Positions 6,701 through 29,298 of a stretch of DNA of 64,000 nt are shown piece by piece. The notes under the pieces are model-generated. The model made no database searches, was not told the DNA's origin, and was given only the letters and a program-made list of their open reading frames with translations. Every line of letters starts with the position of its first letter. Within the stretch, counting starts at the first letter, position 1. The DNA is from a virus (Duplodnaviria; Caudoviricetes), in the IMG/VR virus record IMGVR_UViG_3300046103_002699, positions 3,807-67,806 of that record; one strand, 5' to 3'. The position numbers were made by a program, and so were the translations under genes.

Positions 6701-7408
6701 TACTATAATTCGTCCCGCTCCTTTAACCAAAGTCCATGACTTTACTTCAAGTCCTCCAAAGTTGTAGTCGGTAGAACCCGAACCTGACATACTTTCTACT
6801 AAAACCCAATCGGGTGCTAAACCCGCTTGAGCTAAAAAACTAGCCTGTGTGTCTATTCCAATAGAGCGGTAAGTACGTATTTTTAACTTTCCGTTGTACT
6901 TTACCTCTTCTTTAAAAGATACAATGCCTATTTCAAAGTATTCTTCTTTGTATTCTGCGTAGCACTCCTTTTCGTCGAAAGTGACTCTTGCAAGAACAGT
7001 CTCATCGCCGTTAGGTGTTACCCATTTTTCAGTTCCTACCCGTGCTTCACTCCAAGCAATATTATAAGGCTCTTTTACTATGTATGACTTAGTGACACGT
7101 ACTCTACCTATTCCGTCTCGTATGTAGTCGGGCGGGTCAATTTCTGCGGGTAGGTCGTTTACTTCTTGGTACACACGAGTCAAAACATCTTGGCTTGCGT
7201 CTTGGCTACCTTCTAGCTTTTGCTGAACCAATAAAGCTTCGCCGTACTCTTCGTCAGGCGTGCAGAAAGGTTGGAAAACAAGAGTTTCTACAGTTGGTTC
7301 GGCACTGCTAGGGCCATGAACCACGTACCTTCTAGTAATTTTACGTAAACCGTTAGTCGCTTTCTCAACAACAGGTTTACCAATAGGTCGTAAGAAGTCG
7401 TTTGGCAT
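755..7408 (-). CDS. 2217-aa repetitive virion fibre/tail protein
   Basis: About 5 copies of a ~116-aa unit (GEIDRK..NGAL..IG.QS..GY.R.S....SG.FDVFTDVY.KG) then about 20 copies of a ~60-aa unit, mostly with two Cys; lies directly after the adaptor gene. Confidence 0.7.
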   Translation of the reverse strand: MPNDFLRPIGKPVVEKATNGLRKITRRYVVHGPSSAEPTVETLVFQPFCTPDEEYGEALLVQQKLEGSQDASQDVLTRVYQEVNDLPAEIDPPDYIRDGIGRVRVTKSYIVKEPYNIAWSEARVGTEKWVTPNGDETVLARVTFDEKECYAEYKEEYFEIGIVSFKEEVKYNGKLKIRTYRSIGIDTQASFLAQAGLAPDWVLVESMSGSGSTDYNFGGLEVKSWTLVKGAGRIIVEEEDKGPTQITTEVIIVADGDPYTPHSTIPPNQIYETREEDKDGYDLWTIKGVVGQGEIDRKHEVRYNGALEIITIKNIGAQSTVPVGFVRISEDHDQSGSFDVFTDVYVKGLGLVSREEEDKGTAQITTEIWITPDGGVPAHGITPNQIFETKLEEKDGYEIHTIRGVVGQGEIERRLETKHNGALTVLTIKNIGAQSTAPVGYVRISENFDQSGRFDVFTDVYVKGSGLVSSSQEDKGTAQITTEVHITVNGGTPASNIPPTQVFQTRVEEKDGYEIHTISGVIGSGEIERKEETKHNGALSVIRIQNIGQQSAVPAGYDRISQTYNQSGQFDVFTDVYVKGLGLISTEEEDKGTAQLATEVHIVPNGGTPTSNIPTNQIFETKVDERDGYEIHTIRGVVGAGEIDRKLDVRHNGALEVLTIQNIGQQSAVPNGYVRVSEKLNQSGRYDVFTDVYAKGAGLISSTEEEKGLATITTEVWLTANGGIPTTTIPQGQIYRTTAEEKDGYEVHTIVGVQGQGEIDRKLETRKQGALQILTIQSIGAQAPNQAGFTRVSERSDRSGNFEVFTDVYALGAGRIQESKSTSSGDTIRTTVTYLMVDDEPAPQGCVTAQDIEDLDGYVLYKKTYTSSANIPDLVTSTRSDQYGIFYPTVSKTGNAPPVFPNSVAIIAKRETRHNCLDGANAVTEYEYTFAVLPADLEVSKSVRMSGQMKLTDITAINNMPAQGGCVTAESDKSLYDVDGSVFAEVFSKTFAEGVGVVDESVSTSNGITRRRKKTIGAAPVGGCVVAKNEEQIFDLAGAVCETLYDYTFLEGAGEMERSVSSSGGVTKTRIKQFGGIPANAGCVVAKSEEQIKDVDGGVCDTIYDYTFVEGAGEISRSVSSSGGVTKTRIRAIGAVPQGDGCLVAKGEEEVQGVDGACYTIYEYTFAEGAGELERSTSTSGGVTKERVKTIGAAPQGNGCIVAKSEEEINGVNGKCFSIFDYTFASGAGELERSTSTSAGLTRTRIKAIGAAPTGNGCTVAKREEVTKSVDGADCLTIYDYEFLASGQGEVERSVKTNGGLTVTRIKAIGARPGGNGCLTAEGKEEIKDIDGGVCVTIYTAEYTSGQGELDRSVTSSDGITFTRIKKFGGVPAGGTCVTQRSTETVYDIKGGACDAIETRTFMMWQTGVISRSTRTGPDNMLLTTVVSTNKGGGRPAGGCTMGEETKEFRDADGALCFTRYTSTYGSAPAAGEIERTTRSGGGKSITSIKSVGQVPVGKGCQTGESKKEIKDIDGAVCFSVYTAEFTVGTGIIDNKASTRSDGGVEITVRAIGAPPAAPAGGCMLAEAEEGIFDKDGVQCDTQYTYTFLVPPSGHIISESTSTNSNGVTTTTVVGANIVPIPPNGGCVVGKGEKQINDMGGNPCYSIYTREFATGEGVIRTSVRTSGGLTYKTIKSVGQAPAGQGCLTSKSEIIHEGAEDGPCYTVYEYEYLENISYRILSQSVNHGSNGIKKTTTKTLEAPFIGAGCKVAESSYTIDGINGTCATVYETETIEGTGEYDRSVSTKSGYSEVTIRSIGQPPQAPAGNRCLLTSSEVDVTGMDGTCFKKYVYTYIIAPYGKVLSTRTRWSDGVLYTTTRQMDQAATATGCKVSEAVEEIHGENGVCLSIYETTYAEGDGEIDRSVSNRGGVVFTTIKSIGQPPQGQGCLWSKSEVTRKGFNGTDCYTIYTYTFAKGYGEVSRTSKTDGCGITYTTIESIDQAPNGAGRLMSQTESTESGGEGPCFTRYKYTFVDDNSAVMLIVTQYRTDGSVVYTESAYNQQPARQGKCLMETRMKCDDVGDLYTTVSYDPPQGFYTRATGMYFKRGQLGLSPEGVVKIIASPVKQLVVANVAVSIEQAPPNATIEEHDYSPVLERTVFLHTGGVTVHTETFHDYCVVGADSSECTDCKFMGAPAARIESELKGGKCEGDSSVIKIVSDRVVALGGCVYYRNEVWTKA

Positions 7409-15716: not shown

Positions 15717-15950
15717 TTCCTCCTCGTCGTCGTGGGGGTCGTCGAGGTCTTCTAAATTTATGTCTGACTCAAAATTAACAGTTTCTGTAAATCTTTCTAA
15801 CTCTTCTATACACACTTCCGCCATGTGCTCTTCCATTAAATCGTATTCTTCGTAAGTTCCATTTAAAAAAGTGTTAAATGCCGTTCTGAACATTTCTTTT
15901 TGGTCTTCGTAGGGAACTTCTTCCCCTTCTTTGCTCTTATTAATAGTCAT
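15714..15950 (-). CDS. 78-aa highly acidic protein
   Basis: 27 of 78 residues are Asp/Glu versus 5 Lys/Arg; overlaps the end of the giant gene. Confidence 0.65.
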   Translation of the reverse strand: MTINKSKEGEEVPYEDQKEMFRTAFNTFLNGTYEEYDLMEEHMAEVCIEELERFTETVNFESDINLEDLDDPHDDEEE

Positions 15951-18900
15951 CTATTCCCATCCTTTCTGCTGTTTTTATGAATTTGTTCATTAAGCGCGTT
16001 CGTTTTCTCTTTAAGATTTCAATTTGAGTAACTTTTTGCTGACCCGATAATATTTTGTGGTTTTCCACTGCTTCGATTTGGCGGCGTAAAGTCGCAAGCT
16101 GTTTTTGCACTGTCTTTTTATAGACGCTGTTGAGCTTCATTCTAGGAGCTTCGTATTGTATAACTGCTTGTGCTTCTTCGGGGGTTCCGTTTTTCCTGTA
16201 GTGCTCTATTCTTTCTTTGGAAACGCCTGTGTGATTAACTAGATTGTAAAAGCGTTCTGTGTCGTAATAAACGGTCTTGTCTCCCACAAACCTTCTTAAT
16301 ATTGGGATATCGTTTAGGGTAGGGGAGGCTTCGTCAGATTGCGTTGCCTTAGAAGCTAAATCACCCGACCTACCTATGAAAGAACCTAGACCGCCAAAAA
16401 TATAATTAGCCATGTAGTCTATTGTGTCGGGAGATATGTCAATAGCCCCGCTTCTTTGCAAGTCGCCTCCCGTAAATCTGTTCAGTCCTTGTGCTATGCT
16501 TTTGGACATTTCGGTTGTGCTTGACCAATGTAAGGCGGAGTCGGGGGTTCCATTATTAAATTTATCTTCTTTGTATACGGGAGCTCCTTTAAAATCCTGG
16601 TTTAAACTCAAGTCCATTATAGGCTGTAGCGCAGTTGGTGTAAGCGCCGCTGCCATTGAGCTTCCTCCTATAGGACTAAAGCTTTCTAGCGCAGTAGCTC
16701 CCCACGTTAAAGCCGCGTCTCCGAGCTTCATGTTCCCAAATATAGTAGATTCTAACAAAGTTCCCGCTGATGTAAAAACGTTGATACCGTATGGAGTGGG
16801 AATCTTTGCGTGTTTTTCACCAAAGCTAGGTAAAAAGAAATGTAAGTTGTGTGTCTTACTGTAGGGGCTGACTCGATCCCACGCAGACATTTCTAACTCG
16901 TCGTCTTCGTCAGACATCAATCTGTTTATGAAAGAATTCATAAAACCTAATAAAACCGCTCCGCCTAAAAACTTTCGGGCTTTTGGGCTTTTGTACGCTG
17001 TGCTTAAAACTTTGGCACTGCCTTGCACTCCCGCGTTAAAGAATAAATACATGCCGTTTAAAGCTGTCGTCCACTCTCCTTTTCTCGTGAAGTTAGTTGT
17101 GAGGTTAAGGGCTAAGTTCGCGGCTTTTTGTTTTGAGATGCCCTCTTTAACAAAAGCGTCATACGCGGTGACGCGGACTAGGTTTTCTACCGCACCACTT
17201 GTCTTATCCATGAACTCATACGCACCTTTGAGAAACGTTTTCATTCGTTGAGGATCGTTTGGATCAAACTCGCGAACGGAACCGCCAAACTTCTTGGCTA
17301 ACTGTTGCACGGAGTCGAACCCGAAGAAATTTATTCTACCGCCGTTGTCTGAGAAATCTTGAAATATGTCTGCCCACTTCTGCACTTCGGCTGAGTGTTG
17401 AAATTTACTACCTTTTAGTTTTTCAACGCCTTGCGATACCAACATCCCCCGACCGCCTGTTGTTTGTAACAAAGCTCCTTGAAAAGCGCTTCGTAGGGTC
17501 TTTGGGTTGTACATGTTTTTCAAAGCACGGGTCTTGATCTGCTCCACTTTCTGTTCGGTAATTTCTCCGCGAGCTACTTGATCTTTAAAGTCGCTGTCTA
17601 ATCCTTTAATAGAGTAAAGACCCATGCCCCAATCCCGTACAAAGTTAACAGGGGTAAACGCGGGTGATAGTGTAGTCCGTAGCGCAGCCATTGTGCGTGT
17701 TACTACTTTAACGGTGTTAACTAAAACGCCCGATTTTTCAGCTCCTAAATTTTTTAAAGCCCGCGCTACAGAGCTAGTTCCGTCTAAGCGATCTCCATCA
17801 AGACGCAATGCCACGGTTACGCCGTTAATTTTCATTCCAACTATATTGGGATCATCCTTCCAACGTGGGTCTAGTTGTTTTCTAGGCTTCCCGTACTTAT
17901 CGATTGTCGTGACCATGACACCTTTAGTATAGCTAAATAAATTTTTAGATATGCCTTTAAGAGCGGGGTCTTTGTGGGCGGAGGCTACTAAGTCAAAAAA
18001 CGATCTCATGACTTCGTTCTTTTGGGATTCGACTATGCCCTGCCTAGACAACGCAAAAGCGTATGCTAGGTGATTAGAAACCATTGAGTCTTTAACTAAA
18101 CCTCCCGACGATCTGAACTTGTGTTTCAGTGTATTCATGCCTCGGCTGATTGGAAGCACTGTTTGATTCAACTGCGTCTTTACATCTACATTAGAATGGT
18201 CGTAGTAACTAGAGACCTCTTCCCACCCGCGAAGAGGGATAAAATGTTTGTACGCTTTGCGAATTCGATCAAAATCTTTTTTGCCTATGAGTCCCGACTT
18301 ATATTGTCGCTCTAAAGAAAGACGGTTCATCTTGTCTACTAATCTTGAAGTGTGCTCATACGCAGCCACCCCCGCTGGGTTTTGTTTAATAGTCTTAATC
18401 ATCCGCACTATGCGGTCGCGTTGAGGCTCTGTTAATTTGCCTGCCACGTGCATTGCGTAAATAGCTCTTTCATTTAAAGCTAATGCGTGACGCGAGGCAT
18501 CGTCGGAATAACCTGAACCCGCTTCCACGTCGCTTTTAGTTGATATAGTGCGTCCTTGTAGTCTGCCTTTTTTAAGTTTGATATTCCCCTGCCTCGGCCA
18601 ATTAGGTTTCTGCGTTCGTTTAATTTTCTTTTTAGCAAAAGCTTCAGCTTTAGACTGGTCTTGAAACTCTTTGGTTTTTGTTTCTACGGTGCCGTCTGCA
18701 AATGTGTTTACCCAAGATACTTTAAAACCTGTAGAAAAATCTTTAGCTTTTTTCTCAGCTCCGTAGCTCCTAAATTGTTTTTGCACTAGCCGTCCGTTTT
18801 TTCTGTAGCTGACTGTTACAACTTTAGACTGCTCCCGATTAACAGCATTTCTTTCTTGGGCGTGTCTTAGGTGTAAATAATCGTCTAAAACTTCTACATC

Positions 18901-21900
18901 TACTTTATTTTCGGCTATGCTCTGCGCTATAGGGCGTTCGTGGTCTTCGCTCTGATTCGTAAGCTCTGCTCCTGTTTTGCCGTGGTAATTTTCATGCTGA
19001 ACATATGTTTGCAATTTATCATCAAAAGTACTCCCCGTGGCTTCTTCCAAAACTTCTATTAAACGGCGGACGGGTAGCATTTTATCTTGCAACTTCAATC
19101 TAATTGGATCGGTTGCAATCTCAGCGACTTGCTTTAAACGCTCTACGAAGGAAAGACTTTGATTTAAAAAAGCTTTCTGTGAAGCAGACGCAACTTGTTG
19201 TGCGTTAGCTTTAGCGTTTGCTATTACAGGAGTTTGCCCTTGGCGAGCCCCTAATTCGTCTCCGAATATTCTATTATTAAAACCCGTCGGGTCGAGGCTT
19301 GGGTCTAACTCTATTCCGTTGACGGGGGCTCGTGAGTCATTGCCGCCAAACGTTGCACTTCTTCGTCCTCCTCGTCGAGGTTTAATTCCACTGCCACTCT
19401 CGAAATTTCCGCTTGCCACTCCTCTTTGAGCTTTGAAGAGCTCGTTTGCGGAGCTTGCGTAGTCGGGGTTTGCGTCTTTTTGTCTGCTTCCATATCCTTC
19501 ATGTACTAATTTTTCGTAATACCATAATAGCGCTTGAGCTTCCGCAGGCACAAGTTTTTTATTACGTCCTTCGTTAAATTTTTCGAGCGCGTCAGCCATG
19601 ACTTTTCGTGTCCAAGATCGGTGCGCACCGCCTTCGGGGGCTTCTATTAATGTGTAGCCATCTGCAATCTTGTGGAAAGCGTTAGCGGTCTTTCTAAGAT
19701 TGTTCCCGACTTCAGAAAGATTCTTTCTGTTGTCCGCATCTATGAAATGCTTCGCTATTAGGGCTGAGAGTTTAGCGGGGTCTTTGAGGTTCTGCCGCAC
19801 GCCCGCTGTTTCTAAAATTTTAATAGCAGTTGGGTCTTCTCTAGCCTTTTGAACTATGTCGAGAAGAGCTTGTCTCTTTCCTTTAGGGTACTTTTTTGTC
19901 TTAGCATCTCGGTCAGCTTTCTTAACTTGCTGACCCATTGCCCTGCCCAGCGTTCTCATAAACCACCGATCCATTGTCGTGGTGTCAAAGTCCCCGTTTA
20001 GGTTGTTAAAAAATGAGCCAAGTTTTGGCCCGAATACGAGAGAAAATGGTATCACTTCAGAAACGCTCTCACCATTAGTGAGTTTGTCTGCTCGTGTTTT
20101 AGTGTATCCGAGAGCGATCAATTCTTTCACCAACTCACTCTTCTTGTCTTTTCGTGAAAGAAAGACTCCAAGTTTGTCGAATCCTCCTAGTTTTTGTGCT
20201 AACTCGTCCGCGAGTTTTAAAGACTTTACAATCGCCTCGCCTCTTGCGGACTTAGATTTACCGTCGCCGAGTTTCCCGTTTTTCTTAAATCCTTTGTATA
20301 TATCCCAACCGTCAAATGTTTGGCTTTTCACATCCGCCCCGTTACTAGTTATAGCAAGGGTGATCATAAGTGCCGACTTGTTTTCAGGTTTCGTTAAGTC
20401 AGGGTCTAGCTCTGTAAAAATTTTTACAGCCATGTTGATGCGGCTTTGGTACCAAGAAGCAAAATTAGGAAATTCGTATATAGCGCGGTTGAGGACATCT
20501 AGCACTCTGTTACCCGCTTTGGAAATTTGTTTTTTAGTAGCCTTGTCAGAAAAAGGTATCCTTTGAGAGGCACTAAACAATTTGTTCAGCTTAATTGCTA
20601 TTGAACGAACGCGCCCGCCTTCAAAAGGAGATGCTTCGATGGGGGCTGCGGATCGTAAAACATCGTTTTTGTCTTTGACTCCTCTGTCTTGGAGTGCGTC
20701 TAAGGTTTTATCAAGATCGGTGAGGTATGTGGTTTGGTGGAGATTTGTAGGTCGGGCTCCTAGCTCCATTCCAAACTGCCCTTCGTATGTTGGATATAAA
20801 AGAGTAGGGCCAAATGTCGAATTATCCGCGTTTTCCCACCACAAATTATATTCGCCGTCAATTGCTGCGAGCTCGGCGGCTAGTGTGGCTACGTCGTTGG
20901 GTGGGTTTTTCCCGTTTCCTTCTAAAAATATGTTTTTGCCAAAAGAATCTTTTTCGACTCTGACCCGCACCAAGCCCGCTCTGAACCCGTCTTCCATAGA
21001 TAAGTTTCCCTTTAGCTGACGTATCAACTGTTTCATGGGAGGCATCCCATAGTCCATCGCCATAGAGCTTTTCATCTTCCCTTCTATGACTTTTTTGGAT
21101 ACATCGCTGTCGGGGTTCTTTTGGACTATGTCGTTAAGCGCGTGGATGTGGTAGGTGTCGAAAACATTTACAAACGATCCGTCGGGGAAAAACCACCCGT
21201 GTGTTACGTTTTTACCTGTAAATTTAGCTTTTTTATATGAGCCTGAAACTTTGCCTTTTGGGCTTATGATCTCACCTGTGAGTTTTAACTTTGCCCCCTT
21301 GCGAGCTCCAAATTCGTCTGAGAATTTCTTTTTTGGGGACACCATTAACGGAAACGCATGTGCGTCTTCGTAGTCTTTAGTAAAGCTTGGTGCGTTCGCA
21401 TTTAGCTGTTTGAATTTTAAATTCTTTGCGTCGTAGCCTTTGGACTCTAGTAAACTCGTAACTGCGTCTTTGTCCATCTCGGTAGGCTTGCCCTCCCAAA
21501 AATAAACAGCGCCTGAAGATTCTCTATAACGCCACGGGTTTCCTTTGGAGGACATGATTCCCCTTGGGTCGTGATTCATCATGCCCAAATCACCGCTCTT
21601 GTTGTACAGAATCTCTCCGTTTTCAACATTGCCTAAAAGACCGTGTTCGGGTTCTCCTTTGCGGGCTCCTAACTCTAGTGACTGTGCTTGCTGTCCAATC
21701 TCGCCTGCGTAGTCCCACGCCGTGTCTGCTTCCATATACGGGACACTGTCGCGAACTTTTGCAAAACCTTTTGTTTCCATTGCAATTGGGGCAAAAGAAG
21801 CTTCGGGGTCTTTGACCATAAGCACGATGTCGGGTTCGCCCAATAGGTCGTAAGGCCATCCGTCGGGTGCGTATTCTTTGTTAAACTTAACGCGCGCTAC

Positions 21901-24900
21901 AGGCTTAAAACCAAACTCAGAATAAAGATTGGGTAAAAATCCTCCAACATCGTAAGCGTCTAAAGTTTTAGCATATTGCGAAGCTTCTGCTAAAATTTCT
22001 TTGGGCTTTGCAGTAGATGTTGGGTGTTTGAACACAGACACTAAATCTGCGTAATCGGTAATAGCGACACCCGCTGAACCGTCGCCGCTCATAAAAATCC
22101 CGTTTTTCGGGTCTTTATAAAAGTCTAGGTCTTTGACTTCGACGGCTTTGCCGACGGGGTGATCTTTGTAGGTGCGGGAGATGCCTGCGTGGAAAGCTTC
22201 TCCTTGGGTTGCAGAGTCAGCGCGGAAAGCATTCCCGCGTACTTCTTGCGCATAAACTCTTCCACTTGCGATTTGTCTTTGAAGCGCTTCATTTGATATA
22301 TAATTTAGTTGGTTATTAGAGCCTTTGCGAGCTCCTAATATGTTAGGGTTCGCGGTGGCAAAATTACCGTCGTTCCGCACATCTTTAAGTTGTTCAGAAT
22401 TAAAAACGGCTATCTCTGCCCCATTAAATACGTCTCCGCTAAAAGTAAAACCGTCGTGTTCGGGTTTTAAATGAGACAAAGCAAAAGCTTTTCGTTCCAT
22501 GTAGCCCTCTACGCCTTTTCTCTTTGCTGCACGCATCAACGGGTCGAGGTTCAGAGGATTTTTTAAGCTGACATAAGCGGGGATCATCCGACCTTTCGGC
22601 AAAAGGCTTGGGTTTTCCCTAGCTTCTTTGTTAGTCAGCCCTTTTTCTTTTCTCAGTCGATCTCTTTTTGCGCGTCCGTAGGTCGAAGCTGTCATAGGAT
22701 CGGGTGACAGGTAAATAGCTTTGCGTCCTGTTTGAGAAGCTTCCATTGCTTGGAACGCTGTAAAAGTGCCAACAGTTCCATGAAAAAACACTTTAGGTTC
22801 TCCGTTTTTACTTACTGCTTTTGACCCTTTAAAATATTTTTTAAAATTAGGAGTTTTTTCTTTTTCTATTTGTCGGTATGCTTCAGAATCGGTGTTCTTA
22901 AAACCCGCTCTCAAGGCGGGGCGGGCTCCTAGCTCTAACTCTGTTTGTCCCGTTGGTTTCGGAGTAGTTGTTACACGTGAATTAAGATTAAAAGTCTCAT
23001 CTACAAAATTATTCGACTCGCCTTTCCACTTTCCCGTGGTGGGGTTTCTTATACCTACAAGAGTTCCTTTTCCATTAACCTTAAAATTCTTGTTATTTTT
23101 TAGCCACGAAACGGCGGGTTTGTTTAAATATTGCTCAGAGTCTTTAAAAGCCTTAGACGCAAACTGCTCTTGCATCTTTAATTTCTCAGGGGAAAGTGGT
23201 TTAGTCTTAATGACAGGCATTTTTTCAATCGCCTTGACTATATTAACCTTCTCTCCTGATTTTTTCTTGCGACCCCTACTGCTTAAAGGTTTTATCCCCG
23301 ACCATTCGGAAGTTTCGGGGTTTTGTATGCCTATAATAGTTCCTTCTTTGTTAACATTAAAATAAGGATTTTTATCTAAGGAATTACCTTTGATGTTTTT
23401 ACCCAAAATCTTTTCGGGGTTTTTGGAAGCTTGTACGGCGTAGTTTTTTTCCGCTGCTGTTTTTGCTTTCTTAGATTCAGATACTTCTTTGCGAACTTTT
23501 TGTTTTTCGAGGCTGTCTAAAATTAGTTTAGCGGATGATTTTGGATTCTTTTTAACGCGGTCTTTAATCTCGTTCAAAGCCGCGTCTTTTTCAGCTTGTG
23601 TGCTGTTCTTGGAACTTATTACTCTTTTTAACGATCCCGCTGTTTTCTTCTTAGCGCGGACAGTAAGTACATCCGAATCCCCGCGAGACGACTTGTCGTC
23701 CGCCGACGGTGTAGATGTGCTAGGTACCGCTGTTGTTTGCGACTCAGGTGTAGCGGCTTTCTGTGTTTTTTTCTTTTTAGAAACTTTAGGTTTAGCAGGC
23801 TTGACTTCAGGTAATGGTAAATCCTGGTCTTTTTCAAAAGCATCGGGTTCTTTAGAAGATGTTTCATTGTCAGTTTCTTCCACAGGTTCCACAACAGGGC
23901 GCGCCATGTCCGCTGAATCGCGCGCTAGTTGCGCTCCGTCGGCGACTTCAGATGTCGGGCTGTTGTTGATAGTAGCGCCGTCTGTTTTTCCTTCAAAGCC
24001 AAACATAGAAGCAATTTCTTTATCTACTTCTGCGTTGCTCAAGTTCTTATCGCCAATCATGTCCTTAAAGGCGGGTCGGAGCTTTTGGTAAAACTTTTTA
24101 ATCATTCCCAAGACACCTTTATCCATGCCTTGTATTTGGTCTCTAGCTACACGAGAATATTGAAACGCCCACCACTCACTTTTGGTTCTGTTGGCAAACC
24201 CGTCATCTGCTTCGTAACGCGCGTAAAACTCATCTCTAGCTTTTTTCCACGCTTCTGTGGATTGCTCGGCTTCGCTTCTAGCGTCAATGTTGTATTCTAA
24301 ATGAGCTAAAAACATTCCCTGTTTTTTGCCCTCTTTGTCTTTTACATTTCCGTCTATGCTTTCAAAAAGTCTTTTGACTTTGCCCTCGCCCGTCATGAAG
24401 CGCTCTGAAAAGTGTCCTACTTCGTGGACTATGTTTGCAACAAGTGAGCGTGTCTCGTTTAATCGTTTGCCCGTAGTTACTGAAGTATTGTTCGTCTCAT
24501 GATTGATTTCGCCGTAATTACTTAACCCCGCGTCTCCGCTAGTGTTAACAGTAAGTACGTTGTTAGACTGATTAAAAGACATAGGTGAGCCTTCAACTCC
24601 TTCCGCCATCTCACTTGCAAAAACGATTTTCATGTCACGCCAATCAGAACCGCCTTCTTGTTCCATAGCCTCAAAGAACTTTCCTAAGAACGTTGTCTGT
24701 TTTTCGTTCATGGCACCTTCGCCGAAACGATCTACAAATAACTGTTGCAGTGACTCGTTGTCTTTAGCTGTGTGGAACTCGTGCTGTTTGCCATTGCCTA
24801 AATCCACAATTCCCGAAGTGCCGTGTTCAGTTTGGGTCTCTTCTCCTATGACTTTAGCGTCTCCTCTGTATGAACTTGCGGTGCCTTTTTCTGCTTCTAG

Positions 24901-27231
24901 CGCCTCGTCGGTTATTGATTCGACTTGTGAGTTGAAATTTTTATCTGCTAAGTCTTTTTTAGTAGCTTCTGACCATTCGTGATGCGCCTTCTGTGTAAAC
25001 TCAACACTAGTGTCCACAGTTTTTTGTAGCGCACTTTGACCCGCATCCATCATAGGGCCTGCAATACCCTCCATGATAATGTCTTCCATGTTTTCTCCTA
25101 CATAGCCACCTACTTCATATTTACCTTCTTTGTTTTTTCCAAAAGTAACAAAAGGGGTACTCATCCCCATTTCGGAGTGCATCATCTTCATGCCTGCGAC
25201 TTCGCCCGCCGCTCCCGTTCCAAAGTCTACTACACCTCTAGCAAGGGCGGGTACAACTACCCCCGTAGCTCCCATGCGTTGCATTGTTTTTGTAGCAAGA
25301 CCGCCCGCAAACATTGTGAAGGCTTCTACTGTCGCTATGGCTGCTGTTCGTTTTAAAGCCGCTCGACGCACCTGTGCTAAAGCTTTTGGGTCGTTTAATA
25401 AACGTATATGTGCTTCTTGGTTCAGTGCGTCAATTCCTTCGGGATCAGCGTCTGTTTTTACGTTCTGAATGGCTTCTAAATAAGAACCGCCGTACTCAAC
25501 TGTTGCCCCCGTTGCAAAGCCGCCCGCTATTGCAGAGCGGCTTTTCCAAGCGCCTCCTAGTACTTTCTTACCCCATTTAGTACTCGCAACTGCGTCTGTT
25601 AAATGTAAAAGACCTCTTAAATACTTAAACCTATTTAAGCCTTTGCTTTTCTTTAGCTTTTCTAGAGTGTTTTCTGCAAAAGAACCTCCCACTTGAGCGG
25701 CTGCGCCCGCCACAATCCCTACGGGTGCTGCTGAACCGTATTGCGCGCCCATAGTTCCAATAAATTCAGAAGCTAAATCGAAAGCGGAGCCCGCGCCGTC
25801 TACATCGTCAAAAGAAAGGGAAGTTGGTCGCATTTTAGATTGTGCGGCAAACTCTGCTTGTTTTTTAATGTGCTCTTCGTCTGACTGCAATCCTACTGCA
25901 TGTTGTATAACATTTAAACTGTTCCATGTGCCCGCTAAACCGCTCTTGATCGAATTGCTCCACCTGTCCTCGCCTGCGTCTCTTTTTTCATCTGCGATCT
26001 CTTTCATGAGACCCATCGACAAGCCCATCTCTTCTTTGCTCTGCATTCTGCCGACTAGGTCTCCCAACATTTCCATGTCGTTGCCTTTGACTAAGGCTTC
26101 ACGCATTACTCTTTTATATAGCGCGAACCCTGCTTCTGCCTCTTCAATTTTCTTCGGGTCTTTAGACGCATTTGCAATCATCAACTGATGTCGTGCAGAT
26201 CGAAAGTCTAACATAGAAGCGTTAAAAACTTCTGAAAAGCGGGCTTTGTCTACCTCACCTTCGCCGAACTTTGCCATCGCTCCCTGCGGGTCGGCTTTGT
26301 GGTTTGCTAAAATCTCAGCTTCTTTCTTACTGACGTTTAAAGGGAACCCCGCAAAGTAACCGTTTTTTGTAAAACGGATGCCTTGTTTTTCTAACAGCCG
26401 CTGTTCGTCGTATTCTCGTTTTAGTTCGGCTTGGTAATTGGATTCTTGGTGTATCGCTTTACGGGCTCTAGCTGTTCTAGCGGCGTGACCCATCATATCG
26501 GTGGCGCCTCCTATTAAATAAGGATCGTACCCCGTTTCGGCTGTCATCCTAGATCGAGCTTTTCCGCGAGTAGTTTCGTCAGCATCCCCGTTTTGAGCTT
26601 CCCATATGTCTTGTAACGCTCTCCGCTGTGGGTCGCCCATTGACAGGTATCGCTTAGTAAATTCGTCTCGGACTGAGTACGCTTCGTTAGCGTATTTTTG
26701 GATTTCGTCTCGGTCAGTAGCGGCTGATCGGTACTTTGCAATTATTCCGTCCCACTTGCCTTTTAGCGGTAAACCGCGTTTAGCTCTTTCTGCGTCGTCA
26801 GACTCTCCGAAACCTAGAAACGCCGCCTCGTCTTTGTTTTCATTGTAAGAGTTAAATTGATTGTCGATCTCATCAATAAACATGTCGGGGTCTTCAATCT
26901 TTTGACCCTCCCAAAACGGCATTCTGCCTTCCATTGGAACATCATTAGACACGTTGTCCAGCTCATCTCGAAACTTAGACATCTCATCCATAAGAGGTGA
27001 CATCTGTTTTTTGTTGGAAGATAACAATTCGTCGGCTTTGCTCGCGCGGTCGCGTGCGTCGTTGTATAAACTCTTAGGTACAAAGCTATCGACGGCAGTT
27101 TCTAGGTCATCTCTGTTGTTAAATACATGTGACAGAGAAGGTGGAACTGCGGGTTTAGTGGGTTGGGCAGCTATAAGAGGTTTTTCTTCCTCTTCGTCGT
27201 CCAACAAATCAATGTTGTTTGTTAAATCCAT
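15940..27231 (-). CDS. 3763-aa polyvalent internal virion (ejection) protein
   Basis: HEVGH zincin-like motif; ART-PolyVal-like module (VFFHGT..IYLSPD..YVSLKNPL..IAVFNSEQLK); GNAT-like module (LDAYD..LPNLYSEFGFKPVAR); HhH-glycosylase-like module (GPKLGSF..TTMDRWFMR..QALLW); LPD38-like C-terminus (FFNAGVQG, KIPTPYG, PTALQP). Confidence 0.8.
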   Translation of the reverse strand: MDLTNNIDLLDDEEEEKPLIAAQPTKPAVPPSLSHVFNNRDDLETAVDSFVPKSLYNDARDRASKADELLSSNKKQMSPLMDEMSKFRDELDNVSNDVPMEGRMPFWEGQKIEDPDMFIDEIDNQFNSYNENKDEAAFLGFGESDDAERAKRGLPLKGKWDGIIAKYRSAATDRDEIQKYANEAYSVRDEFTKRYLSMGDPQRRALQDIWEAQNGDADETTRGKARSRMTAETGYDPYLIGGATDMMGHAARTARARKAIHQESNYQAELKREYDEQRLLEKQGIRFTKNGYFAGFPLNVSKKEAEILANHKADPQGAMAKFGEGEVDKARFSEVFNASMLDFRSARHQLMIANASKDPKKIEEAEAGFALYKRVMREALVKGNDMEMLGDLVGRMQSKEEMGLSMGLMKEIADEKRDAGEDRWSNSIKSGLAGTWNSLNVIQHAVGLQSDEEHIKKQAEFAAQSKMRPTSLSFDDVDGAGSAFDLASEFIGTMGAQYGSAAPVGIVAGAAAQVGGSFAENTLEKLKKSKGLNRFKYLRGLLHLTDAVASTKWGKKVLGGAWKSRSAIAGGFATGATVEYGGSYLEAIQNVKTDADPEGIDALNQEAHIRLLNDPKALAQVRRAALKRTAAIATVEAFTMFAGGLATKTMQRMGATGVVVPALARGVVDFGTGAAGEVAGMKMMHSEMGMSTPFVTFGKNKEGKYEVGGYVGENMEDIIMEGIAGPMMDAGQSALQKTVDTSVEFTQKAHHEWSEATKKDLADKNFNSQVESITDEALEAEKGTASSYRGDAKVIGEETQTEHGTSGIVDLGNGKQHEFHTAKDNESLQQLFVDRFGEGAMNEKQTTFLGKFFEAMEQEGGSDWRDMKIVFASEMAEGVEGSPMSFNQSNNVLTVNTSGDAGLSNYGEINHETNNTSVTTGKRLNETRSLVANIVHEVGHFSERFMTGEGKVKRLFESIDGNVKDKEGKKQGMFLAHLEYNIDARSEAEQSTEAWKKARDEFYARYEADDGFANRTKSEWWAFQYSRVARDQIQGMDKGVLGMIKKFYQKLRPAFKDMIGDKNLSNAEVDKEIASMFGFEGKTDGATINNSPTSEVADGAQLARDSADMARPVVEPVEETDNETSSKEPDAFEKDQDLPLPEVKPAKPKVSKKKKTQKAATPESQTTAVPSTSTPSADDKSSRGDSDVLTVRAKKKTAGSLKRVISSKNSTQAEKDAALNEIKDRVKKNPKSSAKLILDSLEKQKVRKEVSESKKAKTAAEKNYAVQASKNPEKILGKNIKGNSLDKNPYFNVNKEGTIIGIQNPETSEWSGIKPLSSRGRKKKSGEKVNIVKAIEKMPVIKTKPLSPEKLKMQEQFASKAFKDSEQYLNKPAVSWLKNNKNFKVNGKGTLVGIRNPTTGKWKGESNNFVDETFNLNSRVTTTPKPTGQTELELGARPALRAGFKNTDSEAYRQIEKEKTPNFKKYFKGSKAVSKNGEPKVFFHGTVGTFTAFQAMEASQTGRKAIYLSPDPMTASTYGRAKRDRLRKEKGLTNKEARENPSLLPKGRMIPAYVSLKNPLNLDPLMRAAKRKGVEGYMERKAFALSHLKPEHDGFTFSGDVFNGAEIAVFNSEQLKDVRNDGNFATANPNILGARKGSNNQLNYISNEALQRQIASGRVYAQEVRGNAFRADSATQGEAFHAGISRTYKDHPVGKAVEVKDLDFYKDPKNGIFMSGDGSAGVAITDYADLVSVFKHPTSTAKPKEILAEASQYAKTLDAYDVGGFLPNLYSEFGFKPVARVKFNKEYAPDGWPYDLLGEPDIVLMVKDPEASFAPIAMETKGFAKVRDSVPYMEADTAWDYAGEIGQQAQSLELGARKGEPEHGLLGNVENGEILYNKSGDLGMMNHDPRGIMSSKGNPWRYRESSGAVYFWEGKPTEMDKDAVTSLLESKGYDAKNLKFKQLNANAPSFTKDYEDAHAFPLMVSPKKKFSDEFGARKGAKLKLTGEIISPKGKVSGSYKKAKFTGKNVTHGWFFPDGSFVNVFDTYHIHALNDIVQKNPDSDVSKKVIEGKMKSSMAMDYGMPPMKQLIRQLKGNLSMEDGFRAGLVRVRVEKDSFGKNIFLEGNGKNPPNDVATLAAELAAIDGEYNLWWENADNSTFGPTLLYPTYEGQFGMELGARPTNLHQTTYLTDLDKTLDALQDRGVKDKNDVLRSAAPIEASPFEGGRVRSIAIKLNKLFSASQRIPFSDKATKKQISKAGNRVLDVLNRAIYEFPNFASWYQSRINMAVKIFTELDPDLTKPENKSALMITLAITSNGADVKSQTFDGWDIYKGFKKNGKLGDGKSKSARGEAIVKSLKLADELAQKLGGFDKLGVFLSRKDKKSELVKELIALGYTKTRADKLTNGESVSEVIPFSLVFGPKLGSFFNNLNGDFDTTTMDRWFMRTLGRAMGQQVKKADRDAKTKKYPKGKRQALLDIVQKAREDPTAIKILETAGVRQNLKDPAKLSALIAKHFIDADNRKNLSEVGNNLRKTANAFHKIADGYTLIEAPEGGAHRSWTRKVMADALEKFNEGRNKKLVPAEAQALLWYYEKLVHEGYGSRQKDANPDYASSANELFKAQRGVASGNFESGSGIKPRRGGRRSATFGGNDSRAPVNGIELDPSLDPTGFNNRIFGDELGARQGQTPVIANAKANAQQVASASQKAFLNQSLSFVERLKQVAEIATDPIRLKLQDKMLPVRRLIEVLEEATGSTFDDKLQTYVQHENYHGKTGAELTNQSEDHERPIAQSIAENKVDVEVLDDYLHLRHAQERNAVNREQSKVVTVSYRKNGRLVQKQFRSYGAEKKAKDFSTGFKVSWVNTFADGTVETKTKEFQDQSKAEAFAKKKIKRTQKPNWPRQGNIKLKKGRLQGRTISTKSDVEAGSGYSDDASRHALALNERAIYAMHVAGKLTEPQRDRIVRMIKTIKQNPAGVAAYEHTSRLVDKMNRLSLERQYKSGLIGKKDFDRIRKAYKHFIPLRGWEEVSSYYDHSNVDVKTQLNQTVLPISRGMNTLKHKFRSSGGLVKDSMVSNHLAYAFALSRQGIVESQKNEVMRSFFDLVASAHKDPALKGISKNLFSYTKGVMVTTIDKYGKPRKQLDPRWKDDPNIVGMKINGVTVALRLDGDRLDGTSSVARALKNLGAEKSGVLVNTVKVVTRTMAALRTTLSPAFTPVNFVRDWGMGLYSIKGLDSDFKDQVARGEITEQKVEQIKTRALKNMYNPKTLRSAFQGALLQTTGGRGMLVSQGVEKLKGSKFQHSAEVQKWADIFQDFSDNGGRINFFGFDSVQQLAKKFGGSVREFDPNDPQRMKTFLKGAYEFMDKTSGAVENLVRVTAYDAFVKEGISKQKAANLALNLTTNFTRKGEWTTALNGMYLFFNAGVQGSAKVLSTAYKSPKARKFLGGAVLLGFMNSFINRLMSDEDDELEMSAWDRVSPYSKTHNLHFFLPSFGEKHAKIPTPYGINVFTSAGTLLESTIFGNMKLGDAALTWGATALESFSPIGGSSMAAALTPTALQPIMDLSLNQDFKGAPVYKEDKFNNGTPDSALHWSSTTEMSKSIAQGLNRFTGGDLQRSGAIDISPDTIDYMANYIFGGLGSFIGRSGDLASKATQSDEASPTLNDIPILRRFVGDKTVYYDTERFYNLVNHTGVSKERIEHYRKNGTPEEAQAVIQYEAPRMKLNSVYKKTVQKQLATLRRQIEAVENHKILSGQQKVTQIEILKRKRTRLMNKFIKTAERMGIDDY

Positions 27232-29298
27232 TTAGTTTCTTATGCCTTGAACGTGTTGGCTATATGTCTTGTCATTGTCCAAAGACTTGCGCATCTCTAT
27301 GTCGCGAGCGGGGCTTCCCATAGACCACTCTAATACAGGATCGTTAGCAGGGGCACCGCTTTCCATTTCTCCTGTAAAGTCGTTTTTCCAATCAGTGTCA
27401 CTTAAACCGATAGCCGCCATAGCTTTCCCGCCTGTTGAACGCTTGCCTTTTGCCTTCGCCCATGCTTTCCACTCGGAGTTTTTTCTATAGTTCCGCATTT
27501 TTATAAAGTCTTGAGCCATCTCTAAAATCATCTCTTTGGACTGCGCTATATTTTCCATAGATTGCTTTGCACTGTTTGCGGGAAGTGCTTTTGCGTCTTT
27601 TGAAAACTGTAAAGATTGCGCTACAAACATCGCCATTTGTGGGTCGTCGTTTGCGTCGGAACCTAATTCGTTTGCGTACGTTAAAAACTTCTCCATCGCT
27701 AAAGCGCCCGTTGGTCGTTTGTTGCCTGAAAAAAGGATATCGGTCGCTTTGTTTGGTAACATTTGAGAACCGCCCTTGCCGTACTTATCCGACAGCCCGT
27801 CTAATAGGTTCATGTCTTTTACCATTTGATTGTACTCTTTGAATGTGTTTTCATTCACGTCCATAGAGATAGCGTCGGCTGAGTAGCCTTTTTTCGGGTC
27901 GTACTTAACTGAAGTAATGCCTTTTACGCCTTGTATGCCTCCGTCGGTCGCCCAATCAAAAAGTTCAGTGCCCGCAGATATAGAAGCAAGCCCCGCTTGT
28001 GCCCAAGGGTTGCGTGCAGCTTTTTCACCCCACTTGCCCGCTTTGTCTAAAATCTTACCCGCACCTTTAAAAATCTTATTGTTTTTGAGCTTTTTAAAAG
28101 CAGCGGAAGTTTTTGAGTCTACATTGTCATATGCGTTGGAAGCCTTTTGATCTAACTTATCCCAAGCATTGGTCACTTTTGTTGGGCTTCTGACATCATA
28201 ACCCTTTGAAAATAAAGTCTCGTTGTCTTTGAGTAAAAGTGTGTCTTTAAAATTCTTGTAGCCTTTCTTAGCCAACTCCCCTGTTTTCTTAGCGCCTTTC
28301 TTGAGAGCCTCGCCTGTTTTCTCAACCCCTTTTTTTGCGTCGTCCCATAAAGGAGAGTCTAAATTTTTTCCTTTTCTTATCTTCTCTTGGGCTTTGTTTG
28401 AAGTTGTAATGGTATCGGCGCCCTTTGCTTGTACTACTCTGTCGCCCCCACCCGTCAGCGATCTTGTCTTTTTATCTGTGTCGGTAAATGTGTCGTTTTT
28501 CATGTCCACACCCTGCGGTGTGTCACGCATCTTACTTGCTATACCCACGCCTGCCGCGAGGGGGTCAAATAGTTCGGGAGTCTTCATGTCTCCTAACAAA
28601 GGATTGTCCTTACTAAACAGATGTGGATCGCGATCTACGAAACCTTCTTTAAATTCTTTATTATTCCCATGAGCAGTCCGCATGTCGTCCGTGGTTTTAA
28701 GCGGTTCTCCTGTCAAAGGATCACGCGGGATGGGGTCGTCCACACTCACCCTCATCGGGCTGTTCATATTTGGGTTCTTTTGCCTCGTGGCGTTCAGCGG
28801 TAAAGGATTGTTCACCCCGCCTTGTTGAAAATTACCACGCATACCGTCGGGACGCACCATGTAGCTTCGACTGTCTAATCCGTTAGGCATTGTTAGATTA
28901 AACTTACCGATGTCCAAGTTAGTGGTAAACGGTGCGTCTTTATCTAAACCTCGTCCTAAATACTTTCCTACCTGTGCGGGTGTCATTCCTAAGTTAGGAT
29001 CACCCGTAAACATGCGATTTTTGTTTTTTTCAGTGGCAGCGCCTAAGTCAACAAACCTTCTATCGCCTTCGGGAGCGTCAGGTGCGTGTTCGGCTTCGAC
29101 CATTATACGGTTCGGATTGTTCGGAACTTCTGAACCTTGAGTCTGAGTGAAGGGGGTCATGGTCGGGTGCAATCCCGCTCTGACTTCTTTAACCAAATTT
29201 TGATTGGGGTCTCGTAGTTGATTCGGTCTGCTGTTTTGCAACTGCTCCAAATCAATCTTAGGCGCCATGCGCCGCCGCTCTTCTTCGGTTAAAGCCAT
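27232..29298 (-). CDS. 688-aa putative internal virion protein
   Basis: Low-complexity K/A/G-rich; directly upstream of and abutting the giant ejection protein gene. Confidence 0.6.
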   Translation of the reverse strand: MALTEEERRRMAPKIDLEQLQNSRPNQLRDPNQNLVKEVRAGLHPTMTPFTQTQGSEVPNNPNRIMVEAEHAPDAPEGDRRFVDLGAATEKNKNRMFTGDPNLGMTPAQVGKYLGRGLDKDAPFTTNLDIGKFNLTMPNGLDSRSYMVRPDGMRGNFQQGGVNNPLPLNATRQKNPNMNSPMRVSVDDPIPRDPLTGEPLKTTDDMRTAHGNNKEFKEGFVDRDPHLFSKDNPLLGDMKTPELFDPLAAGVGIASKMRDTPQGVDMKNDTFTDTDKKTRSLTGGGDRVVQAKGADTITTSNKAQEKIRKGKNLDSPLWDDAKKGVEKTGEALKKGAKKTGELAKKGYKNFKDTLLLKDNETLFSKGYDVRSPTKVTNAWDKLDQKASNAYDNVDSKTSAAFKKLKNNKIFKGAGKILDKAGKWGEKAARNPWAQAGLASISAGTELFDWATDGGIQGVKGITSVKYDPKKGYSADAISMDVNENTFKEYNQMVKDMNLLDGLSDKYGKGGSQMLPNKATDILFSGNKRPTGALAMEKFLTYANELGSDANDDPQMAMFVAQSLQFSKDAKALPANSAKQSMENIAQSKEMILEMAQDFIKMRNYRKNSEWKAWAKAKGKRSTGGKAMAAIGLSDTDWKNDFTGEMESGAPANDPVLEWSMGSPARDIEMRKSLDNDKTYSQHVQGIRN

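Follow-up and report, generated by a model that had tools for sequence, protein, structure and literature searches.

A conserved hydrophobic-Gly-Ala-Arg motif at the module junctions of a giant polyvalent phage protein

Polyvalent proteins of phages and conjugative elements join unrelated effectors in one chain; among them are giants, such as gp47 of phi24B and gp69 of JC1 (Bcep22-like), that carry an LPD38 domain near the C terminus and are encoded in the virion module. The same features are observed in a giant protein of 3763 amino acids (aa), which is encoded as one uninterrupted open reading frame (ORF) at positions 15940..27231, on the minus strand, of a 64,000-nucleotide stretch of DNA from a tailed phage (positions 3,807 to 67,806 of IMG/VR virus record IMGVR_UViG_3300046103_002699; hereafter the window, to whose numbering all coordinates refer). 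An ART-PolyVal domain, a predicted GNAT fold, a DUF7178-like module, and LPD38 occur together in this single phage ORF, as expected of a polyvalent protein. The class was defined by Iyer, Burroughs, Anand, de Souza, and Aravind in 2017 (PMC5512222), and processing by in-built zincins was predicted in that work, which names no cleavage site or inter-domain motif and from whose text the words “linker”, “boundary”, and “interdomain” are absent. Full-text literature searches on LGAR, LPD38, and polyvalent-protein cleavage returned no description of a motif such as the one considered here. The giant protein differs from the published polyvalent proteins in having a defined tetrapeptide, a hydrophobic residue followed by Gly-Ala-Arg, at every junction, and these tetrapeptides coincide with the exchange points. 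It is a polyvalent protein with explicit, conserved junction marks, an observation that is real and highly non-random.

The carrier layout of the giant protein is reminiscent of the MARTX toxins of Vibrio, in which conserved ends enclose a central effector array that varies between strains by recombination and an in-built protease cuts between the effectors at short Leu-containing sites after delivery. MARTX toxins are secreted into eukaryotic cells and carry a cysteine protease that inositol hexakisphosphate activates, whereas the giant protein has a candidate zincin, a phage capsid as its vehicle, and a bacterial target; the two have no sequence relationship. Short recurrent consensus sites are also found in packaged or ejected head proteins, where gp21 of T4 cuts L/I-x-E sites and the proteases of phiKZ and SPN3US cut S/A/G-x-E sites. 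These prohead proteases are separate serine enzymes of the assemblin or HK97 type, with many substrates, and mostly remove propeptides. Similar to their substrates, the giant protein carries a short recurring consensus in what is probably a packaged and injected head protein, but no such protease was found among the ORFs scanned, and all sites but one possible extra reside in one protein, where they separate whole enzymes. In polymorphic toxins, the PxxxxDPxGL motif of Rhs proteins and the VENN motif of CdiA mark the point of exchange of variable toxins, and the Rhs motif is also an autoproteolysis site. Rhs and CdiA proteins have one junction ahead of a single C-terminal toxin, in contrast to the six serial junctions between unrelated enzymes in the giant protein.

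Junction motifs and the domains between them

Six [EI][LF]GAR motifs had been listed in a first-pass annotation of the window, and the translation of the giant ORF places all six exactly where they were reported. Motif 1 is an ELGAR that starts at aa 1433 (22935-22921; LGAR at aa 1434-1437, 22921..22932), motif 2 an ILGAR from aa 1631 (22341-22327; LGAR at aa 1632-1635, 22327..22338), motif 3 an ELGAR from aa 1853 (21675-21661; LGAR at aa 1854-1857, 21661..21672), motif 4 an EFGAR from aa 1973 (21315-21301; FGAR at aa 1974-1977, 21301..21312), motif 5 an ELGAR from aa 2156 (20766-20752; LGAR at aa 2157-2160, 20752..20763), and motif 6 an ELGAR from aa 2659 (19257-19243; LGAR at aa 2660-2663, 19243..19254), all on the minus strand. 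The composition of the protein predicts 0.019 copies of [EI][LF]GAR and 0.007 of ELGAR. The tripeptide GAR occurs six times (1.5 expected), every time inside a motif, and no [LFM]GAR is found elsewhere in any ORF of at least 100 codons in the six frames of the window. When the whole genome, a single phage record of 67,806 bp (67.8 kb) that contains the window, is considered, the only other hydrophobic-GAR sequence in a real gene is one IGARP (3473-3484, minus strand) in a 2217-aa repeat-rich virion protein (ORF 755-7408). This number is about what chance gives, though the IGARP could be one more site. The idea that the recurrence in the giant protein is itself chance, or an artefact of low complexity, can be given practically no weight, given six copies against 0.02 expected, the absence of the motif from the rest of the window, and its conservation in relatives.

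The 1100 conserved C-terminal residues, used as the query in a word-indexed search for relatives, yielded 93 giant LPD38 proteins. An initial scan of viral contigs with one sequence as the query gave no match. As proposed at the outset, the motif is present in related proteins: the six closest relatives, P0002-P0007 (39-82% identity over the whole protein), contain 3-7 copies each of x-[L/F/M]-G-A-R, and the more distant LPD38 proteins show no enrichment of [L/F/M]GAR. Across 34 sites in the relatives, Gly, Ala, and Arg are invariant, and the position ahead of them is Leu in 30, Phe in 2, and Met in 2. The residue preceding this position is Glu at just 13 of the 34 sites, and the residue following the Arg is Lys at 9, Pro at 8, Gly at 4, and various at the others. 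The repeated unit had been described as ELGAR; the recurrence holds, but the Glu is not part of the core, which is hydrophobic-GAR. When the seven proteins are pooled, GAR occurs 42 times against 11 expected, with Leu, Phe, or Met ahead of it in 34 of the 42, and the other permutations of the same three residues occur 4-21 times. Variants of the motif are also observed. The P0004/L007 lineage has YGAR and QGAR at module junctions where other members carry LGAR, and P0003 additionally uses L-[D/N]-A-R-G at three junctions. In some lineages, an extra site splits off a piece of 56-59 residues ahead of the C-terminal block, and sites turn over.

The motifs delimit two conserved end blocks and a central run of cassettes. 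Block A, the conserved N-terminal part (aa 1-1433; 22933..27231, minus strand), ends in a Lys-rich linker. Block B, the conserved C-terminal part (aa 2664-3763; 15943..19242, minus strand), begins after motif 6, which forms its junction with the cargo region, and contains LPD38 (PF18857) at aa 3450-3645, with an E value of 6e-39 and 134 bits against a cut-off of 27. The linker that closes block A (16% Lys), just ahead of motif 1, holds two related segments of ~25-30 residues, at aa 1288-1310 and 1380-1402 (23302-23370 and 23026-23094, minus strand), which share the pattern N-x-x-F-x-V-N-x-x-G-T-[IL]-[IV]-G-I-[QR]-N-P-x-T-x-x-W.

Between the blocks, module 1 (aa 1438-1631; 22339..22920, this and the following modules on the minus strand) is an ART-PolyVal ADP-ribosyltransferase; the Pfam family PF18760 matches aa 1475-1621 with 61 bits, above the gathering score of 31.2, and the AlphaFold model of this part is of low confidence. 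Module 2, or D (aa 1636-1853; 21673..22326), is predicted to adopt a GNAT fold. All 50 of the 50 VIA matches listed for its model are GNAT proteins (Z 9.3-7.6, model residues 246-438, equivalent to aa 1665-1857), and Foldseek matches GNAT structures with a probability of ~1.0 and a TM (template modeling) score of up to 0.59. The first-pass labels for these two modules and for the LPD38 tail therefore stand, that of D at the level of a predicted fold. Module 3, or E (aa 1858-1973; 21313..21660), is a folded α/β domain in the AlphaFold2 model, and module 4, or C (aa 1978-2156; 20764..21300), contains the sequence HGWFFPDG. Module-by-module Pfam searches gave no match for D, E, C, or block A, and an ESM Atlas search gave no usable match for C. 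Module 5, or H (aa 2161-2659; 19255..20751), had been labelled HhH-glycosylase-like, a label that finds no support: no HhH-GPD glycosylase match was found in Pfam (E values up to 1) or among PDB sequences, and the module looks instead like DUF7178. It scores 18.2 bits against DUF7178 (PF23802), below the cut-off of 27, and its nearest ESM Atlas clusters (scores of 0.95-0.97) are viral or phage proteins of 385-412 aa, some of them labelled DUF7178. H is therefore regarded as DUF7178-like rather than as a curated member of the family; an alternative module in the relatives, F, matches PF23802 outright.

The fit between motifs and domain boundaries is visualized in an AlphaFold2 model of aa 1420-2170, built from a 20-row alignment, in which D, E, and C are confidently folded (predicted local distance difference test score, pLDDT, of 80-95). 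At motif 3, the pLDDT dips locally to 54, between blocks of 77 and 82, and it is below 50 in the segments that hold motifs 4 and 5. Motifs 1 and 2 are uninformative in this respect because the ART part lacks a confident fold. The expectation that domain boundaries coincide with the motif is thus borne out by the model at motifs 3, 4, and 5. In addition, a profile search with 1200 residues (aa 1438-2637, from ART through most of H) matched 3921 proteins, most of which are other large multi-domain proteins containing D or H, and apparently stand-alone phage proteins resemble D (136-173 aa) and H (385-412 aa). D and H, which recur in other large proteins and also stand alone, are therefore autonomous units.

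Cassette exchange and selection on the motif peptide

A module map was constructed by cutting seven full-length proteins at the motif and clustering the pieces. Blocks A (1330-1820 aa) and B (~1100 aa) are present in all seven, and block A is common to all members of the clade and to the more distant P0008. The cassettes between the blocks vary: their order is ART, D, E, C, H in the giant protein; x, I, D, E, C, F in P0002; x, x, G, C, F, J in P0003; I, G, E, C, H in P0005; D, E, C, F in P0006; x, D, E-C-F, J in L007; and G, a long piece containing E, and a short piece in P0007. Whole cassettes between motifs are present, absent, or replaced from one relative to the next. P0004 seems to lack block A only because a run of 100 N in the scaffold, at L001:7672-8000 (TARA_SAMEA4398238_METAG-scaffold_3836), splits the giant gene; P0004 (2827 aa) is a truncated call, and its intact form is L007, of ~4011 aa. 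The DUF7178-like position, of ~500 residues, is filled by one of the alternative forms H and F, and phages that are otherwise 85-97% identical differ in the form they carry. F takes the place of H in P0002, P0003, P0006, and L007.

The edges of these exchanges fall at the motif. P0002 is 85-97% identical to the giant protein wherever the two are homologous. The identity stops exactly at LGAR 1434-1437 and restarts 4 residues ahead of LGAR 1632, and it stops again exactly at LGAR 2157-2160 and restarts 22 residues ahead of LGAR 2660. Three of the four breakpoints are therefore located no more than 4 residues from a motif. The chance that a random breakpoint in the 1230-residue centre falls this close to any of the six motifs is ~0.06 by a hand estimate, and that for three of four is <0.001. 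The BLAST blocks that the giant protein shares with other relatives are likewise bounded by motifs (its aa 1632-2161 with P0006, 1978-2163 with P0003, and 1864-1966 with P0007). At motif 5, the breakpoint is visible in the DNA: L006 is identical to the giant gene at 90-97% of nucleotides as far as codon 2156, with 25-30 matches per 30 bases, and this number falls to 7-16 from the motif onward. Alignment of homologues, at the protein as well as the nucleotide level, thus bears out the prediction that modules are swapped at the motif, and the module map, the BLAST blocks, and the predicted domain boundaries agree that the motifs delimit modules. Together, these sequence comparisons show that the motif marks the points at which cassettes are exchanged, inserted, and deleted between related phages.

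Is the motif conserved as DNA or as peptide? The DNA of five independent relatives of the giant gene was compared, and their motif codons include GGA, GGC, GGT, and GGG for Gly, all four Ala codons, and CGC, CGT, CGA, CGG, AGA, and AGG for Arg. The synonymous changes extend to a two-base switch between the Arg codon families; the motif residues stay constant, and the flanking residues do not. The codons of Gly, Ala, and Arg vary freely with the residues fixed, which indicates purifying selection at the level of the peptide rather than of the DNA. The codon comparison across relatives thus shows that selection maintains the motif through its amino acids. Within the giant gene, the motif codons are uniform, GGA GCY CGC, and CGC is used in five of the six motifs compared with 24% of all Arg codons; this uniformity could reflect recent spread of the linker within the lineage. 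The similarity of the DNA across copies, from which a crossover element had been proposed, is therefore a property of the giant gene only, and a conserved crossover sequence is rejected on the grounds that the motif codons are not conserved among the relatives. A megablast search of the phage collection with the giant gene gave no match.

The Shine-Dalgarno-like appearance of the motif DNA is a separate observation. Five of the six motifs in the giant gene read GGA GC, and four of them, with the preceding base, give AGGAG. Internal translation starts at these AGGAG-like strings (TTA/CTA GGA GC) were considered and rejected, since no suitably spaced start codon is found and relatives with GGT or GGC as the Gly codon lack the string.

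The breakpoints at the motif, nucleotide level included, would also suit a motif that is a recombination joint and nothing more, in which microhomology serves shuffling and persists by descent with no function for the peptide. The motif codons of the giant gene, more uniform than its codon usage predicts, point the same way. Such a joint is nevertheless very unlikely: the 12 nucleotides are not conserved in relatives whose residues are invariant, the motif codons differ from those of L006 at 4 of 12 bases right beside a stretch of 90-97% identity, and homologous recombination needs more than twelve degenerate bases. The motif is almost certainly a punctuation mark and cassette boundary of the protein.

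Motifs in other polyvalent lineages

In addition to the giant protein and its clade, other polyvalent proteins have recurrent short motifs of their own, spaced 150-1100 residues apart. LHSP is found in eight copies in P0008, where 0.02 are expected, and FSRKQ in five copies in P0012. KFSL[KR] is found in 4-5 copies in P0034 and P0053, QPMAAPS in six copies in P0097, MPGGGE in four copies in P0236, FQPS in four copies in P0095, and VGAR in three copies in P0107. P0137, P0155, P0143, P0105, and P0183 have boundary motifs as well, and ITFS, FKYSVEDEP, GKPGIETKASK, and AAPEAGISxFLEP are further motifs. In the cases that allowed a check, the motifs flank domains. MAAP and VGAR are placed around an H-like module, MPGG is placed around a GNAT-like module, and each KFSL of P0034 is located immediately before a Pfam domain, namely ART-PolyVal, InPase, PBECR5, or a DNA methylase. 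At the homologous junction with block B, IFGDE-LGAR of the giant protein aligns with LFGHSEL-LHSP of P0008. Most of the lineage motifs open with a hydrophobic residue, and a small one comes next.

The corresponding statistics are modest. An exact 4-mer is common to the upstream and downstream flanks of a module in 18 of 84 cases against 10.3 ± 3.0, and in 16 of 74 against 9.4 ± 2.8. A repeated, widely spaced 4-mer is found in 29 of 169 proteins, compared with 8.8 in shuffles. This background is noticeable, and it is therefore the clear individual cases, not every flagged protein, that carry the generalisation. Lineage-specific motifs as a general rule are a strong lead, drawn from sequence patterns, rather than a result.

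Possible cleavage and a candidate peptidase

The giant protein is laid out like a polyprotein. Block A would supply a zincin-like domain with the sequence HEVGH and block B supplies LPD38, and between them is a variable run of independent cassettes: the ADP-ribosyltransferase, the predicted GNAT-fold domain, the two further domains, and the DUF7178-like module. With a hydrophobic-Gly-Ala-Arg in a flexible linker at each junction, the motif may be what a sequence-specific protease recognises. Cleavage at these points, either inside the capsid or once the protein has been ejected, would divide the ~415-kDa precursor into about seven pieces and allow each module to act alone. Cleavage is the best-supported function of the motif, and, judged from the sequence and the predicted structures, the chances that it takes place are about even. 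That the protein's own HEVGH domain, the sole protease candidate found in the genome, is the enzyme that cuts it is a possible but doubtful further step.

The HEVGH region (aa 741-1090; 23962..25011, minus strand) is a candidate zincin-like metallopeptidase on the basis of conserved residues and weak fold matches. HE[VIL]GH, at aa 936 of the giant protein, is found in P0001-P0003 and P0005-P0008, thus in every full-length member of the clade and in P0008, and P0004 in its full-length form (L001/L007) contains the region as well. H936, E937, H940, E943, and E957 are invariant in the alignment. The model of aa 741-1090 (mean pLDDT 67) has a small β-sheet, a long helix carrying HExxH, and then a helix with E957 (model residues 209-222). 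E943 and E957 are candidates for a third metal ligand. Foldseek matches to this model are weak (E ~0.3). The best VIA match is anthrax lethal factor, also weak, with a Z score of 5.8, a root mean square deviation of 6.3, and 169 aligned residues, and the remaining listed fold matches, with Z below 6, are mostly zinc peptidases (PPEP-2/3, lugdulysin, VgrG2b, Zmp1, selecase, neprilysin, ArdC, and HtpX). No Pfam family has a meaningful score in aa 481-1437 at E values up to 1, and searches of PDB sequences with the HEVGH region and with a whole-protein profile gave nothing useful. Unlike the metallopeptidase domains filed under MPTase-PolyVal in polyvalent proteins, the HEVGH domain thus matches no Pfam model, that family included, and is therefore not assigned to it. 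From the predicted model, a zincin is a plausible identity for the region.

The genomic setting favors delivery of the giant protein with the virion. The giant gene is flanked by the genes of the terminase large subunit and of a 688-aa protein on one side and by an SU10-type portal gene on the other, and further along are the genes of the major capsid protein and the 2217-aa repeat protein. The 688-aa gene (27232-29298, minus strand) is directly upstream and abuts the start of the giant ORF; a Pfam scan found no family match for it, and its counterparts among the relatives vary in length from 480 to 679 aa. The portal type suggests that the phage is a podovirus, and the closest relatives are from marine metagenomes, TARA Oceans among them, which identifies it as a marine tailed phage. 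Another LPD38 protein, gp47 of phi24B, was found in virions by proteomics and proposed to be an ejection protein (preprint). By analogy with that protein, and from the position of its gene between terminase and portal, the giant protein is probably packaged in the virion and injected.

A number of observations weigh against cleavage at the motif by the HEVGH domain. No cleavage product has been observed for the giant protein or any relative. A trypsin-like cut after the Arg is disfavored by the Pro that follows it at 8 of the 34 sites. Individual sites are dispensable, as seen from the decayed forms YGAR and QGAR at the E|C and C|F junctions of L007 and LAAR near aa 2820 of P0002, and a viable domain swap would in any case be expected to have its breakpoints in linkers, cleaved or not. 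With respect to the enzyme, no fold match of the HEVGH region exceeds a Z score of 5.8, and P0107 has VGAR around its DUF7178-like module and no HExxH in the same, perhaps incomplete, polypeptide. The Pfam scan in which no other peptidase family was found covered the 29 other larger ORFs of the genome and described families only. Packaging without cutting is described for some polyvalent proteins, the N4 virion RNA polymerase among them (PMC5512222).

Two of these observations, the weak zincin assignment and the VGAR sites of P0107, would fit cutting by another protease, either one of the host after ejection or a phage protease acting in trans that has escaped recognition; several ORFs of the virion module, such as the 688-aa gene, have no recognisable family and could encode it. 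Such an enzyme is unlikely, with no peptidase family elsewhere in the ORFs scanned and an HExxH domain that is invariant throughout the full-length members of the LGAR clade, and a host protease would poorly explain motifs that differ between phage lineages. The same differences bear on whether the motif is cut at all. A conserved linker element that stays uncut could serve to dock each cassette onto the capsid, core, or portal during packaging, or act as a hinge or unfolding signal for threading the 3763-residue chain through the tail channel; selection at the peptide level and the position in disordered linkers suit a binding or hinge motif equally well, as does the uncut packaging of some polyvalent proteins (Iyer et al. 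2017). Such an element would leave unexplained why each lineage has a different motif of four to seven residues at equivalent junctions, a pattern typical of a protease and its site evolving together; single sites are lost without loss of the neighboring modules, and no binding partner is known. On balance, an uncut element is rather improbable, though less so than cutting by another protease.

Returning to cleavage by the in-built enzyme, the hydrophobic-small opening of most lineage motifs would suit a zincin that cuts on the amino side of a hydrophobic residue, the type that its S1' pocket would favor, which is speculation. More broadly, polyvalent proteins in general might be polyproteins in which each lineage pairs its in-built protease with a site of its own and cassettes are exchanged at these sites, a proposal that is tentative and on present evidence somewhat less probable than its negation.

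Polyvalent proteins make up a large store of phage enzymes for anti-defence and host takeover, most of it uncharacterised. Whether the giants function as fusions or are divided into separate effectors, and at which points, has been an open prediction since 2017, and a boundary mark makes it directly testable; cleavage at the motif, if it takes place, would give fragments of ~160, 22, 24, 13, 20, 55, and 122 kDa. The mark provides an objective way to split these giants into functional units for annotation and expression, and it accounts for an exchange of cassettes between phages that leaves the carrier intact. If the motifs of the other lineages behave alike, the mark would be a general rule for polyvalent proteins, and, if this is true of polyvalent proteins generally, the set of effectors that a phage delivers would be predictable from sequence alone.

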